Source: Octopus vulgaris
Lineage: Eukaryota
DNA length: 64,000 nucleotides
Assembly: GCA_951406725.2 (NCBI GenBank)
Contig: OX597837.1
Coordinates: 23,560,001-23,624,000, forward strand
Direction: 5' to 3'
The notes beneath the pieces were generated by a model. That model did not search any database, was not told the DNA's origin, and saw only the letters and a list, made by a program, of their open reading frames with translations. This document shows positions 7,425-62,045 of this stretch, in pieces; within the stretch, counting starts at the first letter, position 1, and each line of letters begins with the position of its first letter. A program made the position numbers and the translations under genes.

Positions 7425-8030
7425 TTGGCAAGCGCAAGTGAGACCATAACCTTGTGGCCTATGCCAGGGGTGTAACCAGTCCACTTATGCGTGCCTTTCC
7501 TTTATTGGACACTAAACTCTGCCTGCGAAGACTTGTTGAGGCAAGTGAAATCGAAATTGAAATCAAATTCAATGACTGGCATCCATGCTAGTGGAGTGCT
7601 AAGAGTACCATACGAGTGAGATCGTTGACAGAGCAACAAGCTGGCCTCTGTGCCGATGGCACATTAAGAACACCATTCGAGCATGATTGTTACCCGCGTC
7701 ACCTTACTGGCACTTGTGCTGGTGGCACGTGAAAAAACATTCGATCAAGGTCGTTGCCAGTGCCGCTGGACTGGCTCCTGTGCAGGTGGCACATAAAAAG
7801 CACCATTTGAGCGTGGCCGTTGCCAGTACCCCCTGAGTGACCCTTGTGCTGGTGGCACATAAAAGCACCCACTACACTCTCGGAGTGTTTGACATTAGGA
7901 AGGGCATCCAGCTGTAGAAACTCTGCCAGATCAGATTGGAGTCTGGTGCAGCCATCCGGTTTGCCAGACCTCAGTCAAATCGTCCAACCCATGAAAGCGG
8001 ATGTTAAACAATGATGATGATGATGATGAT
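7425..8030 (+). mobile_element. Long family C SINE with an internal approximately 65-bp tandem array
   Basis: Units GTGCNGGTGGCAC..AAAAGCACC at 7649, 7715, 7779 and 7845, followed by the AGGAAGGGCATCCAGCTGTAGAAA block and a (GAT)n tail. Confidence 0.88.
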
Positions 8031-11440: not shown

Positions 11441-12020
11441 GAGTGGGAGTGGCTGTGTGGTAAGTAGCTTGCTTACCAACCACATGGTTCCAGGTTCAGT
11501 CCCATTGCGTGGCACCTTGGGCAAGTGTCTTCTACTATAGCCATGGGCCGACCAAAGCCTTGTGAGTGGATTTGTTAGACGGAAACTGAAAGAAGCCCAT
11601 TGGATCGTAGGGTGACCTGCTGTGCTTGAGGAGACCTATTGAGTCAAGTACATCAACATCAAAATAAAATCAAATGGAAATTGTAGTTGTGATACCTGTG
11701 CCAGTGGCACGTAAAAAATGCCATCTGAATGTGGCCGATGCCAGCGCCATCTTGACTGGTTTCTGTGCCGGTGGCACATAAAAAGCACCAACTGATCGTG
11801 ACCGTTGCCAGCCTGTTCTGTCCCCTGTGCTGGTGGCACATAAAAAGCACCCACTACACTCTCGAAGTGGTTGGCATTAGGAAGAGCATCCAGCTGTAGA
11901 AAAACTGGCAGATCAGACTGGAGCCTGGTGCAGCCTCCTGGCTTCCCAGACCACGGTCGAACCATCCAACCCATGCTAGCATGGAAAACGGACGTTAAAC
12001 GATGATGAGGATGATGATGA
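11441..12020 (+). mobile_element. Family A head followed by a family C SINE with 3 array units
   Basis: gagtggctgtgtggtaagtagc...gaaagaagccc to about 11600, then units near 11697, 11764 and 11826, and a (GAT)n tail. Confidence 0.8.
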
Positions 12021-29999: not shown

Positions 30000-30497
30000 G
30001 TTGAAATTGAAATCAAACTCGGTGACTGGCATCCGTTGCTAGTGGAGCACTAAGAGTACCATATGAGTGAGATTGTTGCCAGAGCAACAAGCTGGCCTTC
30101 ATGCCGATGGCACGTTTAACCACACCATTCAAACGTGATCATTACTGCGTCGCCTTACTAGCACTTGTGCTGGTGGCACGTGAAAGTACCATTCGAGCGA
30201 GGTCATTGCCAGTGCCGCTGGACTGGCTCCTGTGCAGGTGGCACATAAAAAGCACCATTTGAGAGTGGCCATTTCCAGTACCACCTAACTGACCCTTGTG
30301 CCGGTGACACGTAAAAGCACCCACTACACTCGCGGAGTGGTTGGCGTTAGGAAAGGCATCAAGCTGTAGAAACTCTGCCAGATCAGATTGGAGTCTGGTG
30401 CAGCCATCTGGTTCGCCAGACCTCAGTCAAATCGTCCAACCCATGCTAGCATGGAAAGCGGACGTTAAATGATGATGATGATGATGATGATGATGAT
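30000..30497 (+). mobile_element. Family C SINE with about 5 array units, nearly colinear with the 7425 copy
   Basis: Same unit order and spacers as 7560-8030. An opposite-strand relative lies at about 30630-31125. Confidence 0.88.
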
Positions 30498-37149: not shown

Positions 37150-38325
37150 GTGATATTTCATCCATCCTTATGTTCTGAGTTCAAATTCCACCGAGGTCAT
37201 TTTCAATCTTTCAGGGTTGATAAAATAAGTACCAGTTGAATACTGGGATTGATCTAATCAACCTTCGCCCTTCCTCCAAATTGCTGGCTTTGTGTCAAAA
37301 TTCGAAACCAATAGGTCTTTATTAACGATAAGGTTGTAAGCTGGCAGGATCATTAGCATGCTGGACAAAATGCTTAGTGGTATTTCATCTGCGGTTACGT
37401 TCTGAGTTCAAATTCCACCGAGGTCGACTTTACCTTTCATCCTTTCGGGGTCGATTAAATAAGTACTAGTTACGCACTGGGGTTGATATAATTGACTTAA
37501 TCCGTTTGTCTGGCCTTGTTTGTCCTCTCTGCCATTATGTTCTGAGGTTGACTTTTTCCTTTTATCTTTTCGGAGTCAATAAATAAAGTACCAGTTACAT
37601 ACTGGGGGTCAATGTAATCAACTTAATCCTTTTGTCTGTCCTTGTTTGTCCTCTCTGTGTTTAGCCCCTTGTGGGTAGTAAAGAAATAGGTATTTCATCT
37701 GGCTTTACATTTGGAGTTTAACCCCTTACCCAACAATTATTTTGAAAATATATGTATTTTTTCAGACATATTTTTTAATTGTTTTATTTTACTATGTTTT
37801 GAACGGTGATTTCGAGGTATATTTCAAACCCTATTTATTATGAATTTTAATCTTTTAAAATCTTTTGACGAGTTAACTCGCCAGAGATAGAAAAAAACGA
37901 TTTCGGTCAAAACGCATATATTCATTTCTGCCGGGTAAGGGGTTAAATTCTGCCGAGGTCAACTTTGCCTTTCATCTTTTCAGGGGCAATAAAATAAGAA
38001 CCAGTTGTACGCTGGGGTCAATGAAATTGACTTATTCCCTTCCCTAAACCTGTTGGCCTTTTGCCAAAATTTGAAACCAATATGTCTCATAATTAATTTC
38101 ATTGCTAGTGTGGTGAGCTGGTAGAATTGTTAGCATGCCAGGCAAAATGATTAGCAGCACTTCATCCTTTTCTTTGTTCTGAGTTCAAATTCTGCTGAGG
38201 TCAACTTTGCCTTTCTTCCTTTTGAGGTCAATAAAATAAGTACCAGTTGAACACTGCAGTCAATGTAATCGACTTACCTCCTCTCCTGAAATTGCTAGCC
38301 TAGTCCCAAAATTTGAAACCAATAT
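37150..38325 (+). mobile_element. Cluster of same-orientation family B SINE units
   Basis: At least 5 occurrences of ttctgagttcaaattc..gaggtc..tttcggg..aagtaccagtt. Confidence 0.82.
37718..37946. mobile_element. piggyBac-like MITE inserted in a family B SINE
   Basis: TTAA|CCCCTTACCC (37722-37731) ... GGGTAAGGGG|TTAA (37933-37946). The SINE resumes in register as gagtTTAAattctgccgagg. Confidence 0.88.
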
Positions 38326-39926
38326 ATCTTTATTAAGTGGCGGCGCATGGCTTAGTCGTTAGGGTGTCAGTATCATGATCGTAAGATTGTGGTTTCGATT
38401 CCTGGACTGGGCGACGAGTTGTGTTCTTGAGCAAAACACTTCATTTCACATTGCTCCAGTGCAAAAATGAGTAACGCTGTGATGGACTGGTGTCCTATTC
38501 AGCTCGGGAACACATACGCCATTGAAACCTGGAAACCGGGCCCATGAGCCTGGCTCGGCTTTAAAAGGGCACATTTATTTATTTTTTATTATGTCTTTAT
38601 TAACAATGTGTCCTGAAATGAATTCACTTATGAATAACAGCTTGTAATTATACATTGGTTTAAAAGCACCCCTTGGACAACAGAAAAAAATGGTGAGATT
38701 CCTGTAAGATTTGAACCACACATCTTCTGTAACCCAGACAGACATACTAAGAATTGCACTGAAGTAGTCCACAGTGTATAGTCATATTCTTTTCTTTTAT
38801 TCTTTCATTTGTTTCAGTGATTTTACTGTGGTCATGCTGGAACACTACCTTTAGTCAAACAAATTGACCCCAGGACTTATTCTTTGTAAACCTAGTACTT
38901 ATTCTATCGGTCTCCTATAACTTAACAGTTCATCAAAAGGAGGCAATAGAATAAGTACCAGGCTTTAAAAAAAGTACTGGGGTTGATTTGTTTGACTAAA
39001 ACCCTTCAAAGCAGTGCTCCAGCATGGCTACATTCTAAAGACTGAAAAAGTAAAAGAAAAGATAACACAGCAGGGACATTCTAAGTACAGCATTTTCATT
39101 TTATATAACCTATTTAGGCTTCAGCAGCTCCCTCAGCTTAGAAATAAGAGATCCTGGGTCTAATCCTGTTTGGGGCTATGTATGTATCTTTTCTCTGCTA
39201 CTTGTTTCAGTCATTGGACTGCGTCCATGCTGGGAGAGTGTCTTGAAGGCTTTTAGTCGAAAAAAATTAACCCCAGTTCGTATTTTTAGGCCTGGTATGT
39301 ATTCCATCAGTCTCTTCACTTGAACTGCTCAGTCATGGAGATGTAATACAACCAACACCCATTGTCAAGTGGTTGAGGGGAACATGCACAGACATACACA
39401 CGCACACACATGCACACACATGCATGTGCATATGCATGCATACACACATACACATGCACGTACATACACAAACACACACAGATACACACACACGCACACA
39501 AACATATGATAGGTGTTTTTTGAGTTTCTTCTGCTCAATCCAGTCACGAGACTTTGGTCAACCCAGGGCTTTAGTAGAAGACACTTACCTAAAGTAACAC
39601 ACAGTGGGACTGAACCTAGAACCATGTGGTTGAGAAGCAAGCTTCTTACCATACTGTCACGTCTGCAGCTACATATCCAAAAAACAACACAATTGATGGT
39701 GATTGTTAATGAAAGCAATCAATTTTTTTGTGTAACTATATGAATTTTGTAAATATACATTGTAAAGTTAAGGCTAATTGTTCAGATAATTAAAATCTAA
39801 TTACGAACGACTCATCTCAAACACTCAGACATTTAATTATTAAACTTAAAGAACAGCTTCCGTGTTTTTAAATAAAATAGAAACTGATTTCTCTGTTTAT
39901 TTGTAAATATGTGAGCATGTGTGTGT

Positions 39927-40280
39927 AAGTGTGAGTTTGTATGTGTGTATGTATATAGACACACGAAAACACACACATATATGAATATAATTATAAGCAG
40001 GTGCATGCATATGCATATGAGCATATATATATATATATATATATATAGTAAATCCAAACAAGAAAGCACAAAAAAACACAACGCGAGGACGTGGAACAAA
40101 TATAAGTGTGAGTTTGTATGTGTGTATGTATATAGACACACGAAAACACACACATATATGAATATAATTATAAGCAGGTGCATGCATATGCATATGAGCA
40201 TATATATATATATATATATATATAGTTAATCCAAACAAGAAAGCACAAAAAAACACAACGCGAGGACGTGGAACAAATAT
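39927..40280. repeat. Near-identical tandem duplication, unit about 177 bp
   Basis: AAGTGTGAGTTTGTATG...GGACGTGGAACAAATAT occurs twice. Confidence 0.9.
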
Positions 40281-40319
40281 AATATTATTGGACGCTTAGG
40301 AAAGAAGGAAAGAAGAAGG

Positions 40320-43869: not shown

Positions 43870-44190
43870 AAATAAAGCACCAACTGATCGTGGCCGATGC
43901 CAGTACCCCTTGACTGGTTCTTGTGCTGGTGGCACATAAAAAACACCATCTGAATGTGATCGATGCCAGGCCCACCTGACTGGCTCCTGTGCTGGTGGTA
44001 CATAAAAAGTACCCACTACACTCTTGGAGTGGTTGGCGTAAGGAAGGGCATCCAGCTGTAGAAACATTGCCAGATCAGATTCGAGCCTGGTGCAGCCATA
44101 GGCTTTCCAGACCTCAGTGAAACCGTCCAACCCATGCCAGCATGGAAAACAGACGTTAAACGATGATGGTGATGATGATGATGATGATGA
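43870..44190 (+). mobile_element. 5'-truncated family C SINE
   Basis: Array units at about 43922 and 43988, AGGAAGGGCATCCAGCTG, and a (GAT)n tail. Confidence 0.85.
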
Positions 44191-44317: not shown

Positions 44318-45263
44318 AGGCAGCTAGCTGGCAGAAACGTTAGCGCGCTGGGCGAAATGCTTAGTGGTATTTCGTCTGTCTTTACGTTCTGAGTTCAAAT
44401 TCCGCCGAGGTCGACTTTGCCTTTCATCCTTTCGGGGTCGATAAATAAAGTACCAGTTGCGTACTGGGGTCAATGTAATCGACTTAATCCCTTTGTCTGT
44501 CCTTGTTTGTCCCCTCTATGTTTAGCCCCTTGTGGGTAATAAAGAAATAGGTATTTCGTCTGTCTTTATGTTCTGAGTTCAAATTCCGCCGAGGTCGACT
44601 TTGCCTTTCATCCTTTCGGGGTCGATAAATAAAGTACCAGTTGCGTACTGGGGTCAATGTAATCGACTTAATCCGTTTGTCTGTCCTTGTTTGTCCCCTC
44701 TATGTTTAGCCCCTTGTGGGTAATAAAGAAATAGGTATTTCGTCTGTCTTTATGTTCTGAGTTCAAATTCCGCCGAGGTCGACTTTGCCTTTCATCCTTT
44801 CGGGGTCGATAAATAAAGTACCAGTTGCGTACTGGGGTCAATGTAATCGACTTAATCCCTTTGTCTGTCCTTGTTTGTCCCCTCTATGTTTAGCCCCTTG
44901 TGGGTAATAAAGAAATAGGTATTTCGTCTGTCTTTATGTTCTGAGTTCAAATTCCGCCGAGGTCGACTTTGCTTTTCATCCTTTCGGGGTCGATAAATAA
45001 AGTACCAGTTGCGTACTGGGGTCAATGTAATCGACTTAATCCCTTTGTCTGTCCTTGTTTGTCCCCTCTATGTTTAGCCCCTTGTGGGTAATAAAGAAAT
45101 AGGTATTTCGTCTGTCTTTATGTTCTGAGTTCAAATCCTCATCATCATCATCCTCATCATCATCAGTACCAGTTGCGTACTGGGGTCAATGTAATCGACT
45201 TAATCCGTTTGTCTGTCCTTGTTTGTCCCCTCTATGTTTAGCCCCTTGTGGGTAGTGAAGAAA
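44318..45263 (+). mobile_element. Family B SINE concatemer: one head plus five 184-bp units
   Basis: GTATTTCGTCTG at 44367, 44551, 44735, 44919 and 45103. The units are nearly identical and CpG-rich. Confidence 0.95.
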
Positions 45264-45272
45264 TATATATAT

Positions 45273-48932: not shown

Positions 48933-49525
48933 TCATCATCATCATCATCGTTTAATGTCCGCTTTCCATGCTGGCATGGGTTGGATGGTTTGACTGAGGA
49001 CTGGTGAACCAGATGGCTGCACTAGGCTCCAATCTGATCTGGCAGAGTTTCCACAGCTGGATGCCCTTCCTAATGCCAATCACTCCAAGAGTGTAGTGGG
49101 TGCTTTTACGTACGACCGGCACAAGGGCCAGTCAGGCGGTACTGGTGTTTTTACGTGTCACCTGCCCAGGGGCCAGTCCAGCGGCACTGGCAACGCCCTC
49201 ACTCGAATGTTGTTTTTCACACACAAGTGCCAGTAAGGCAACGCTGGTAATGATCATGCTCGAATGGTGCTTTTTATGTGCCATCAGCATGGGAGCCAGT
49301 CAGCGGCCCTGGCAACGATCATGCTCGGATGGTGCTCTTAGCGCTCCACTAGCACAGATGCCAGTCATGCAGTGCTCTCATCGAATTTGAGTGTGATTTC
49401 ACTTGCCTCAACAGGTCTTCACAAGCAGAGTTTAGTGTCCAATGAAGGAAAGGTACACCTTAGTGGGCTGGTTATACCACTGGCATAGGTCATGGGTTAT
49501 GGTCTCACTTGGCTTGCCGAGTCTT
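48933..49525 (-). mobile_element. Long family C SINE
   Basis: Reverse complement of the 7425-8030 architecture, including the 5' block gtgagaccataacc...gaggcaagtgaaatc. Confidence 0.85.
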
Positions 49526-59506: not shown

Positions 59507-60279
59507 TTCTTAACTTTCTGCACACAAGCATCATGCAGACAGAGCCTAGAATATCTACTTCAGTACAATGCTATCTAAAACATAACCCAATAACACCTCC
59601 CCCCACTCACACACACACTTTTTTATAGCTAAAATTCAGTCATATATTTTACCCTCACGTGACCTCCCTAAGTATAGCCATCATTATTTATATTTTCTAA
59701 GAAACCAATGTAACATGGCAGGAAATTTCAAGACATAAAACACACACACAAAAACAAAAAATGCTAAATCTCAACTACTAAACTGGCACGGTTCCTGTTT
59801 ATACTCAGTAACTTTTGCTTATAAGCAATTGAGCTAAGGCTGTTAAAAAAAAAGAAAAAAGGTTAAAAAGGTTATTGTTCATAAAATGAATTTATCACTC
59901 AAAAACCACGGAAAGCCCAATTCATTATTTGATTCTTCATATAACTCTGGTCATTTTTCATGATTGAATTTTCTTTGCTTCTAAATTTACTTGCAGTATT
60001 CTTGCAGTATCTGTCTTTTTTCTCATTATCCATTCATTCAGCCAACACTTTTTACAGTTCTTAACAGTGACCCTGTTTTCCCTTTATAAATTGCTTGTTT
60101 TTTTTTTGTTTTTTGTTTTCTTACTTATTTTCTGTCATTGGACTCGGTTTCTTTCTTTCATCCATCTATCCATCCTGGTTGGGCTACTTTCCCAGACCAA
60201 TGAAAATCTTCCATACCAGATGTTTTGATCAAGTCTTGCCTGAGTTTTAATCACATTGCAAAGACCCAACAAATAACGT

Positions 60280-61864
60280 GAGCTCATGGCTATTTCCTGC
60301 ATCAGTTTCGCATAGCAGCTCCAGCCCATCCAAAGTACCTTGGATTGCAGAATGACCTGCTGTGCTTACCTTGGATCGTAGGGTGACCTGTTGTGCTTGA
60401 GGAGACCTATTGAGTCAAGTACATCAACATTGAAATAAATATCAAATGGAAATAGTAGTTGTGATACCTGTGCCAGTGGCACGTAAAAAGCACCATTCGA
60501 ACGTGGCCAATGCCAGCGCCGCCTTGACTGGCTTCCGTGCTGGTGGAACGTAAAAAGCACCAACTGATCGTGGCTGCTGCCAGCCTCTCCTGGCACCTGT
60601 GCTGGTGGCACATAAAAAGCAACCACTACACTCACAGAGTGGTTAGTGTTAGGAAAGGCACCCAGCTGTAGAAAAACTGCCAGATCAGACTGGAGACTGG
60701 TGCAGCCTTCTGGCTTCCCAGACCCCGGCCAAACAGTCCAACCCGTGCTAGCATGGAAAACGGACAATAAATGATGATGATGATGATGATTATGATGGTC
60801 TTTTACTAGCTGAAATATCTCATCTGCACATACCATGACTATAGATGGTAACAGTAATTTGCTAACTGAACTCCTCGATCCTAGCCATTGGATTTGATTT
60901 TTTTTAAATCTGTGACTGGAAGGAAATGTTTTTGGTTATTAGTAATCAAGTCTTGAGTCTGTTACAAACTAAAGATCAAATTATAGTTGTTATGTGCCGG
61001 TGGCACATAAAATCACCATCCGTTCGTGGCCGTTGCCAGCCTCGCCTGGCCCCGTGCCGGTGGCATGTAAAAGCACCATCCGTTCATGTCCGTTGCCAGC
61101 CTCGCCTGGCCCCCGTGCCGGTGGCACGTAAAAGCACCATCCGTTCGTGGCCATTTGCCAGCTCCGTCTGGCACCTGTGCGGGTGGCACGTAAAAAGCAC
61201 CCACTACACTCACGGAGTGGTTGGCGTTAGGAAGGGCATCCAGCCGTAGAAACATTGCCAGATCTGACTGGGCCTGGTGCAGCCTTCCGGCTTCACAGAC
61301 CCCAGTTGAACCGTCCAACCCATGCTAGCATGGAAAACGGACGCTAAATGATGATGATGATGATGATGATGTTGCTGTTTTCTAAACTTTTGCAACAGTG
61401 AATATATTTGTTATTGTTTTTGCATATACACAAAAAAGAGAAAAAGGAAATAGTCCTGACATGTTTCATAATTTGTTGACCATCTATCAAAGATGTCTTT
61501 CACCTGGCACAAAACCACCGCCTTCAACACCACTTCCCTTCTCAGTTGAGGGATCTTTGTCTTGCAAGTTATGAGGTTACTCCATCAGTGTTGATGCCAC
61601 ATAAAAAGCACCCGTTACACCCTGTAAAGTGGTTGGCATTTGGAAGGGCATCCTGCCATAAAACTTTGCCAAAGCAGATCTTACCTGTACTGGTGCCATG
61701 TAAAAAGCACCCAGTACAATTTGTAAGGTGGTTGGCATTAGGAAGGGCATCCAGCTGTAAAATCCATGGCAAAGCAGACAGTGGAACTTAGTGCACTCCC
61801 CAGGCTTCTTTATCAGCTCCTGTCAAACCGGTCAACCCATGCCAACATGGAAGATGGCTTTTAA

Positions 61865-61870
<6 letters not shown>
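60280..61870 (+). mobile_element. Three consecutive family C SINEs (about 60280-60790, 60991-61372 and 61550-61870)
   Basis: Each has array units, the AGGAAGGGCA block and a (GAT)n tail. Confidence 0.85.
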
Positions 61871-61896
<26 letters not shown>

Positions 61897-62045
61897 GGCG
61901 GTGGTGGTGGTGATGATGATGATGATGATGATGATGGTGGTGGTGATGATGATGATGATGATGGTGGTGGTGGATGGTGGTGGTGATGATGATGATGATG
62001 ATGGTGATGGTGGTGTGATGGTGATGATGGTGATGATGGTGATCC

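Follow-up and report, generated by a model that had tools for sequence, protein, structure and literature searches.

A predicted RNA module, likely relocated from the 5′ UTR, at the 3′ end of an RTE-type LINE of Octopus vulgaris

Introduction

Stringent LINEs use a stem-loop at their 3′ terminus to prime reverse transcription. Bipartite non-autonomous RTE LINEs and RTE-derived SINE bodies have been described which consist of a piece from the middle of an RTE 5′ UTR, an RTE 3′ terminus and a microsatellite tail (Kojima, 2018; PMC5786205). Some RTEs carry the conserved 5′ UTR domain twice, and transcription-factor binding has been suggested for it, no RNA structure being proposed in the portions of that paper covered here; why RTE-derived SINEs keep a piece of the LINE from mid-5′ UTR is an open question (PMC5786205). 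In A-clade R2 elements, a pseudoknot-hinge-stem in the 3′ UTR is bound by the element's own protein, as verified by compensatory mutants (PMC12180492). Octopus vulgaris has a described single-ORF RTE LINE, RTE-2_OV (PMC9115989), and RTE elements have been engineered as gene writers, with their UTR requirements mapped by screening (PMC13708176). Each of these papers is cited for the portions of it that were covered.

We analysed a window of 64,000 nt from O. vulgaris (assembly GCA_951406725.2, contig OX597837.1, positions 23,560,001 to 23,624,000, forward strand), in which a preliminary description had assigned a repeat at 60991..61372 to a SINE family with tandem arrays of a compact H-type pseudoknot, amplified as a mobile multivalent cassette. 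We conclude that a structured module, likely relocated, is the part of this element worth testing, and that the SINE and multivalent readings are unsupported.

Results

Units and parts of the focal copy

The unit motif reported for the focal copy, YGTGC-N-GGTG-GCACR-TAAAA(A)G-CACC, was found again in the sequence, in four units that start at 60993, 61053, 61114 and 61176 with periods of 60, 61 and 62 nt. All parts of this copy lie on the plus strand. It is 5′-truncated at unit 1, the core of which (60993..61017), like that of unit 2 (61053..61077), is an internal copy of the pseudoknot motif; unit 3 (61114..61138) is penultimate, and the terminal unit (61176..61201) is predicted to form an H-type pseudoknot with a stem 1 of 5 bp, a loop 1 of 1 nt, a stem 2 of 4 bp and an A-rich loop 3. 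A GCCAG/CTGGC hairpin had been reported for every spacer. It is present in all three spacers here (61035..61050, with a 6-nt loop, 61095..61110 and 61157..61172), but it is kept in only 10 of the 11 main unit types. Behind the terminal unit, a small predicted hairpin (61202..61222) joins the pseudoknot to an anchor stem-loop (61223..61245) that is homologous to a 5′ UTR motif of related LINEs, and there follow an A-rich linker with TGCC (61246..61261), a variable linker (61262..61307), the LINE 3′ terminus with its stem-loop (61308..61347), which matches the ORF end and 3′ terminus of the relatives, and an (ATG)n microsatellite tail (61348..61371). We saw no clear target-site duplication at this copy. 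The TGCC could pair with the anchor loop as a second pseudoknot; this is a possible pairing only, since four or more pairs can form in six of the 15 sequences and, by a crude null, in 39% of random windows as well.

The loop base N had been considered unpaired because it takes all four bases. The instances cited are all correct (C at 61114, T at 7845, A at 7779 and G at 61176) and all four bases do occur, but they do so unequally: 198 units from a fixed-coordinate sample have C in 123, T in 43, A in 24 and G in eight, and a 6-bp hairpin becomes possible when N is C or T, either of which can pair with the final G of GGTG. Because C at N lies within a CpG, part of the T at this position is decay.

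Copies and subfamilies

The window contains seven exact and 30 approximate motifs, against none or one per shuffle in 10 shuffles, and the genome (2.8 Gb in 227 contigs) contains 50,210 exact motifs, while a search with the pattern reversed gave none; from 24 elements in a dispersed sample of 700 kb we estimate ~96,000 elements genome-wide, or roughly 100,000 copies. All six other copies cited for the window (7425, 11600, 30000, 43870, 48933 and 60280) do contain units. Arrays are not confined to the two to five units first reported and range from one to 15 units among the 223 elements parsed. On the plus strand, the copy whose ORF stops near 60280 begins in the last ORF codons and has three units at 60470..60623, the copy that begins at an ORF end at about 7425 has its units at 7650..7869, and truncated copies have theirs at 11698..11851, 30167..30321 and 43923..44013; on the minus strand, units at 49099..49290 belong to a copy that again begins in the last ORF codons. 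We designate the focal copy type A1, the 60280 type A2 and the 7425 type A3, with the truncated copies at 11698 and 30167 being of A2 and A3 type, respectively, and the minus-strand copy of A3 type. An older family B, which has the same terminal module, is represented at 61586..61870 (plus strand) by a copy in which the whole module is duplicated as a 99-nt repeat; this repeat spans 61586-61790, and in this copy the junction base C reassigns one pair of stem 1 to stem 2.

Copies match their subfamily consensus at a mean identity of 0.999 for a fourth subfamily, A4, 0.978 for A1, 0.953 for A3, 0.940 for A2 and 0.849 for family B, all of these being upper values since the copies were taken from top hits or exact-pattern hits. 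A4 (1,332 candidates) is the youngest subfamily, its dispersed copies being 99.9% identical, and was probably active very recently. In A4, ~360 nt of the 3′ UTR, from the ORF end onward, are duplicated head to tail, and duplications of 25, 61-67, 99, about 122 and about 360 nt recur in the octopus LINE 3′ UTR. The minus strand of 61183-61192, and of other units with CACGTA, reads TACGTG, the core of a HIF/ARNT site; a conserved function of this kind is unlikely, since the sequence is missing from A4 terminal units.

Several further repeats were observed. Arrays of 14-16 units and more (L003, L264 and the genome-wide lists) alternate two unit variants, and their period of ~122 nt constitutes a higher-order repeat within the LINE UTR. 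A minisatellite of ~25-nt units at L278:3463-3800 contains the family-B core motif only. A third, older family (L051:3895, L020:850, L079, L083 and L089) shares the anchor stem and the 3′ terminus, has a different upstream sequence and lacks the pseudoknot motif. At L038:9495-9640, about seven head-to-tail copies of ~20 nt of the anchor 5′ half stand at the truncation point, which suggests repeated re-priming in reverse transcription. Other tandem arrays in the window lie at 44366-45265 (184 nt), 37420-37657 (126 nt) and 39926-40282 (177 nt), the first two of which are built from a common SINE-like family. Contigs of sequencing run X20, which carry no transcription or strand information, hold mostly family-B-type pieces.

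The repeat is the 3′ end of a LINE

The assignment to a SINE family did not hold. The copies are without a tRNA-like or A/B-box head (there is no tRNA gene in the window and no B box 5′ of the seven cited copies), and in 30 of 90 copies of A1-A3 an RT ORF lies directly upstream, which contradicts the definition of a SINE as free of protein-coding sequence. Sense RT matches end less than 500 nt from the array in 8/30 A1, 14/30 A2 and 8/30 A3 copies, with scattered 5′ ends; for A4, in which the UTR itself is duplicated, 0/30 copies have an RT match within 1.5 kb upstream. Three of the cited window copies begin in the last codons of the ORF, and because longer copies continue into that ORF, through endonuclease, RT and PHD finger (near-complete in L031 and L033), the short ones are 5′-truncated LINE 3′ ends. 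A non-autonomous bipartite unit without an ORF was considered and rejected, as the ORF is upstream and the short copies share no 5′ start. By eye, family B also has RT sequence upstream (L240, L244).

Domains PF03372 and PF00078 were identified both in pieces of the octopus element and in P0001, a full-length relative, with no RNase H family reported. A single ORF with APE endonuclease and RT but no RNase H is a trait of RTE-type elements, as are the (ATG)n microsatellite tails and variable 5′ ends. In its domain layout, the architecture is that of the RTE group. An indirect link to RTE is that the 5′ end of relative L095 matches, by eye, an RTE 5′ UTR domain in the supplement of Kojima (PMC5786205, portions covered). 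The 3′ UTR of the octopus LINE is 350-700 nt long, and the unit array sits in it behind the ORF stop codon.

Relatives carry the anchor motif in their 5′ UTR

A protein search gave 403 relatives at E <= 1e-50, of which 58 were aligned with the octopus piece; a search based on this alignment gave 79 metagenome and 11 MAG loci, six of the 11 MAG loci being true relatives. Six bacterial MAG records (L170-L175) contain animal-type LINEs of the RT-PHD lineage, which are probably host contamination. No relatives were found among viral contigs, and 17 motif matches there were dismissed as chance.

In the relatives, which come from other animals, the 3′ UTR is tiny, the tail starting within ~100 nt of the stop where visible (43 loci examined, three of them without a stop in range), and in the eight loci aligned their ORF ends and 3′ terminus match the final 50 nt of the octopus element. 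The anchor motif, however, lies just upstream of the ORF in eight of 12 near-full-length relatives inspected, and also in L144. Its stem is well conserved: in an unedited 17-row alignment, 97.5% of cells are paired and four pairs are changed on both sides, a level of pairing reached in 0/500 shuffles and above all slid controls. Between the four family-A subfamily consensuses, one of 25 anchor-stem columns differs, against 17 of 52 columns of the variable linker, and between families A and B the corresponding figures are 2/25 and 26/52.

The 5′ UTR of the octopus LINE is unrelated to that of the relatives and is pyrimidine-rich, with a TATA-like motif and internal duplications. It was covered to a landmark 580-690 nt upstream of the ORF and over the 600-1000 nt upstream of the endonuclease start, short of the true 5′ end; the 5′ UTR features 600-1000 nt upstream of the endonuclease start were seen in L187, L191, L198, L201, L203 and L207. 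Between landmark and ORF the module is absent from all 14 copies that reach the landmark, out of 30 fetched. A splice acceptor suspected just before the endonuclease proved to be coding, with indels in multiples of three behind an in-frame ATG. Because the relatives carry the anchor in the 5′ UTR, and the octopus 5′ UTR is unrelated to theirs, it is likely that the module was relocated from the 5′ UTR to the 3′ end; we infer the direction of this move from that comparison. The octopus piece, with a 5′ UTR piece joined to a 3′ terminus, has the composition that defines bipartite RTEs.

Short elements from other animals contain the anchor motif as well (L118:220, L127:2980, L152:1909 and L175:1133), in L175 directly behind a tRNA-like head, and the motif may be a named SINE domain; the supplement files searched gave no match to it as a Meta or MESC domain, the alignments in figures lying outside their scope, and the supplement of PMC5786205, in the portions covered, gave 0 matches to the octopus motif. 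Other compact structures without a pseudoknot precede the anchor at L092:40-78, L095:40-96, L098:100-188 (where the structure is duplicated) and L103:150-208, none of them with an Rfam match.

A pseudoknot is predicted for the terminal unit

The H-type pseudoknot proposed for all units finds support in the terminal unit, through relatives that have the same geometry and changed stem-1 pairs, although the independent events are few, and this support does not extend to the internal array. We scanned ten relatives (one of them too short) by pairing and AAA in loop 3 alone, blind to the octopus sequence, and obtained matches in L093 (51 nt before the anchor), L094 (70 nt) and L144 (49 nt); the octopus terminal unit starts at -52. 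The background was 21 matches in 30,000 nt of ORF, giving a binomial p of 7e-4 for a window that was set after seeing the matches. Two more matches in L144, 190-206 nt upstream, lie in flanking sequence and were not counted. L093 has the same geometry (5, 1, 4, 7), with GGTG, the A run and CAC in common with octopus, and an unedited MAFFT alignment brings L093 and L144 into register; two pairs of stem 1, at non-CpG sites, differ there in both partners. In that alignment 90.5% of 63 cells are paired, its rows being five from octopus and two from relatives which were picked after the scan and probably represent one event. Stem 2 has one-sided changes only, and no pair in it is changed on both sides. 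Because seven of the ten relatives scanned are without a pseudoknot before the anchor, it is not universal in this lineage.

Within octopus, the four family-A terminal consensuses have three variable stem positions, all of which keep pairing, whereas loop 1, the final base of loop 3 and the length of the A run differ among them; the family B terminal unit forms 3 + 5 bp, one pair having shifted from stem 1 to stem 2. When N is C, which is the commonest base in terminal units (32/67, with a purine in 19/67), a 6-bp hairpin of -6.8 to -8.6 kcal/mol competes, whereas the stacking of the two pseudoknot stems sums to about -16 to -18 with the loop cost excluded. We judge from these comparisons that the terminal unit probably folds as an H-type pseudoknot.

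No Rfam family matched the window at the gathering threshold, the lowest E in 60200-61900 being 1.3, and none matched 14 related loci; home-made descriptors for HDV-like, hammerhead and twister ribozymes, run without a positive control, gave 0 matches. Frameshifting, one of the assays first proposed, is excluded: a slippery heptamer 5-9 nt upstream is present at 0/19 consensus unit positions, and the units lie behind a stop codon.

Internal units decay

A multivalent cassette was not supported: covariation is absent among the units, broken variants have been amplified internally, and the youngest subfamily contains broken internal units. The pair closing stem 1 is testable in that it is not part of a CpG, and within the genome it gave no covariation of the kind beyond CpG decay that the preliminary description had proposed as a test. 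Over 64,878 units it is C-G in 50,210, T.G in 7,174, C.A in 6,563 and T-A in 931, against 938 T-A expected under independence (odds ratio 0.99). Covariation at CpG-linked pairs within the genome was treated as decay. The C.A mismatch variant accounts for 538 terminal units against 20,411 intact ones (2.6%) and for 6,025 other units against 29,799 intact (16.8%), a contrast that rests on few master lineages, with the mismatch not necessarily abolishing the fold and the distal units also being older.

Clustering of 557 internal units from 223 elements gave 14 clusters present in at least four elements (391 units kept, the rest excluded). Four of the 11 main internal types are broken, every one of them at least two places from the array end, and intact types make up 8/8 of the terminal and penultimate ones but 3/7 of the more distal ones (p = 0.026, the types not being independent). 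In A4, two of four units are broken. There are also signs of constraint: across the 11 internal types, 10 of 18 stem columns vary against 37 of 44 unpaired ones (p = 0.025), the stem of the spacer hairpin persists despite changes in its loop, and family A (61-67-nt units) and family B (25-nt units in L278 and the 99-nt whole-module repeat) each multiplied the motif separately. Individual copies decay alike at all positions, as expected after insertion. We rejected the idea that the spacer arose through an internal deletion in the terminal module, because alignment scores mostly did not exceed those of shuffles (p 0.02-0.87 in 22 tests).

Discussion

What, then, is this element? That it is a LINE, that the array lies behind the stop codon, that the anchor and the 3′ terminus have homologs in related LINEs, that the 5′ UTR is unrelated to theirs and that the internal units decay is firm. 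Built on this is a joint reading to which we give an even chance: the 3′ end of an RTE-type LINE carrying a relocated module, the H-type pseudoknot of which docks the ORF protein, with the upstream units as spares. The octopus LINE would have gained a new promoter region, and a 5′-UTR-plus-3′-end piece, like those of bipartite RTE derivatives, would have become its 3′ UTR, the move having occurred through a template switch to a bipartite derivative or to the element's own 5′ UTR. The end of the LINE RNA runs from units through hairpin, anchor stem, linker and terminal stem-loop to (ATG)n; the terminal stem-loop would prime reverse transcription, and the relocated module would be a second contact for the endonuclease-RT ORF protein, with the pseudoknot as the putative docking site. 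The upstream tandem units would be duplicates under relaxed selection, duplications in the UTR being tolerated provided that the last copy stays intact. Two points lead us to favor docking: the module has remained conserved away from the start codon, something that translation initiation would not account for, and in R2 elements the protein docks on a pseudoknot of the 3′ UTR (PMC12180492, portions covered). Of the roles first proposed, RT recruitment is the most likely.

If instead there were no pseudoknot, the motif would be a simple hairpin, self-similar through its two GTG and two CAC and hence prone to slippage, the array would be a neutral minisatellite, and sequence recognition or a short divergence time would account for the conservation. 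Nested folds of -6.7 to -8.6 kcal/mol, C or T at N in 166/198 units, the absence of covariation within the genome and of a pseudoknot in 7/10 relatives, and a terminal motif that is not less variable than the whole linker (6/26 against 17/52 columns) all agree with such a hairpin; yet every stem change in the terminal consensuses preserves pairing, CACC is kept although a hairpin has no need of it, N is a purine in more than a quarter of the terminal units, and three relatives with other sequences have both stems at the same place, so that we regard this reading as unlikely. The pseudoknot could also be real without docking a protein, as an exonuclease roadblock, a 3′ translation enhancer or a relic of a 5′ initiation element. 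Stabilizing and ribosome-binding elements are known that consist of a compact pseudoknot whose loop 3 is A-rich, which counts in favor of such a role, as does the position of the relatives' module just upstream of the start codon. However, there is no Rfam match, and an element that served initiation alone would lose its role in the 3′ UTR, where the anchor nevertheless differs at just two columns between families A and B; on balance a role of this kind seems distinctly improbable.

The remaining alternative retains the tandem array as the functional entity, with every unit a pseudoknot and extra copies raising avidity for the RT protein or another factor. It accommodates the multiplication of the motif in two lineages with different unit boundaries, the intact penultimate units in 4/4 subfamilies, the lower variability of the internal stem columns and the preserved stem of the spacer hairpin, though low stem variation may stem from recent copying of the terminal unit. 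It is difficult to reconcile with half of the units being broken in the subfamily whose copies are 99.9% identical to their consensus, with four broken types among the 11 internal ones, and with a pair-breaking variant amplified to 6,563 units without compensation, and we consider it quite unlikely.

The literature covered, which excludes the curated libraries (Repbase, Dfam, Zenodo of PMC13282606) and a 1994 octopus SINE paper, contains no description of the octopus 3′ UTR, although the LINE family itself is probably already catalogued; figures and some supplements aside, it contains no 5′-to-3′ move in an autonomous RTE, and, apart from 5′ ribozymes, it reports no pseudoknot in the UTRs of RTEs or in SINE domains. 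A broader reading, which we hold to be doubtful, is that the compact pseudoknot, with its A-rich loop 3, recurs as a so far undescribed RT-docking element in RTE RNAs and in several conserved SINE bodies, moved 3′ along with the acquisition of a new promoter in octopus and multiplied by lineages to tune their competitiveness. If it were true, each truncated copy would carry both cis signals and could be mobilized like a SINE. At the level of annotation, roughly 100,000 short SINE-like octopus repeats are LINE 3′ ends. A portable cis module would be useful for RTE gene writers (PMC13708176, portions covered). A natural element in which a piece has moved away from the start codon and yet is conserved separates a role in protein docking from one in translation, and the module is a defined RNA of 90 nt that can be tested.

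How does the octopus LINE compare with known systems? Luteovirus frameshift pseudoknots and preQ1-I aptamers are H-type folds in which loop 1 is short and loop 3 is A-rich, and the octopus unit resembles them in fold only, being non-coding, with no slippery site and no Rfam match. RTE-2_OV, compared by its description only, has a C2H2 finger and a microsatellite from the ORF end, whereas in the present family the RT core is followed by a PHD finger, and the 3′ UTR is structured and 350-700 nt long (PMC9115989, portions covered). In figure S1 of Kojima, the start of the Ceph-SINE RTE 5′ UTR domain can be drawn by eye as a compact pseudoknot of H-type in which loop 3 reads YAAA, and a stretch of the Deu-domain likewise, with one compensatory pair between two SINEs (PMC5786205). 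Like the bipartite RTEs of that paper, in the portions covered, the octopus 3′ UTR combines a 5′ UTR piece, a 3′ terminus and a microsatellite, but unlike them it is the 3′ UTR of an autonomous element, behind an intact-type ORF (PMC5786205). As in A-clade R2, a compact pseudoknot, here a predicted one, lies near the RNA 3′ end and is followed by a stem; R2, however, is a site-specific RLE element with a single pseudoknot, native to its 3′ UTR and less than 65 nt from the RNA end, whereas the octopus LINE is an APE element with its pseudoknot ~170 nt from the tail, apparently relocated and duplicated, the two being compared here by structure (PMC12180492, portions covered).
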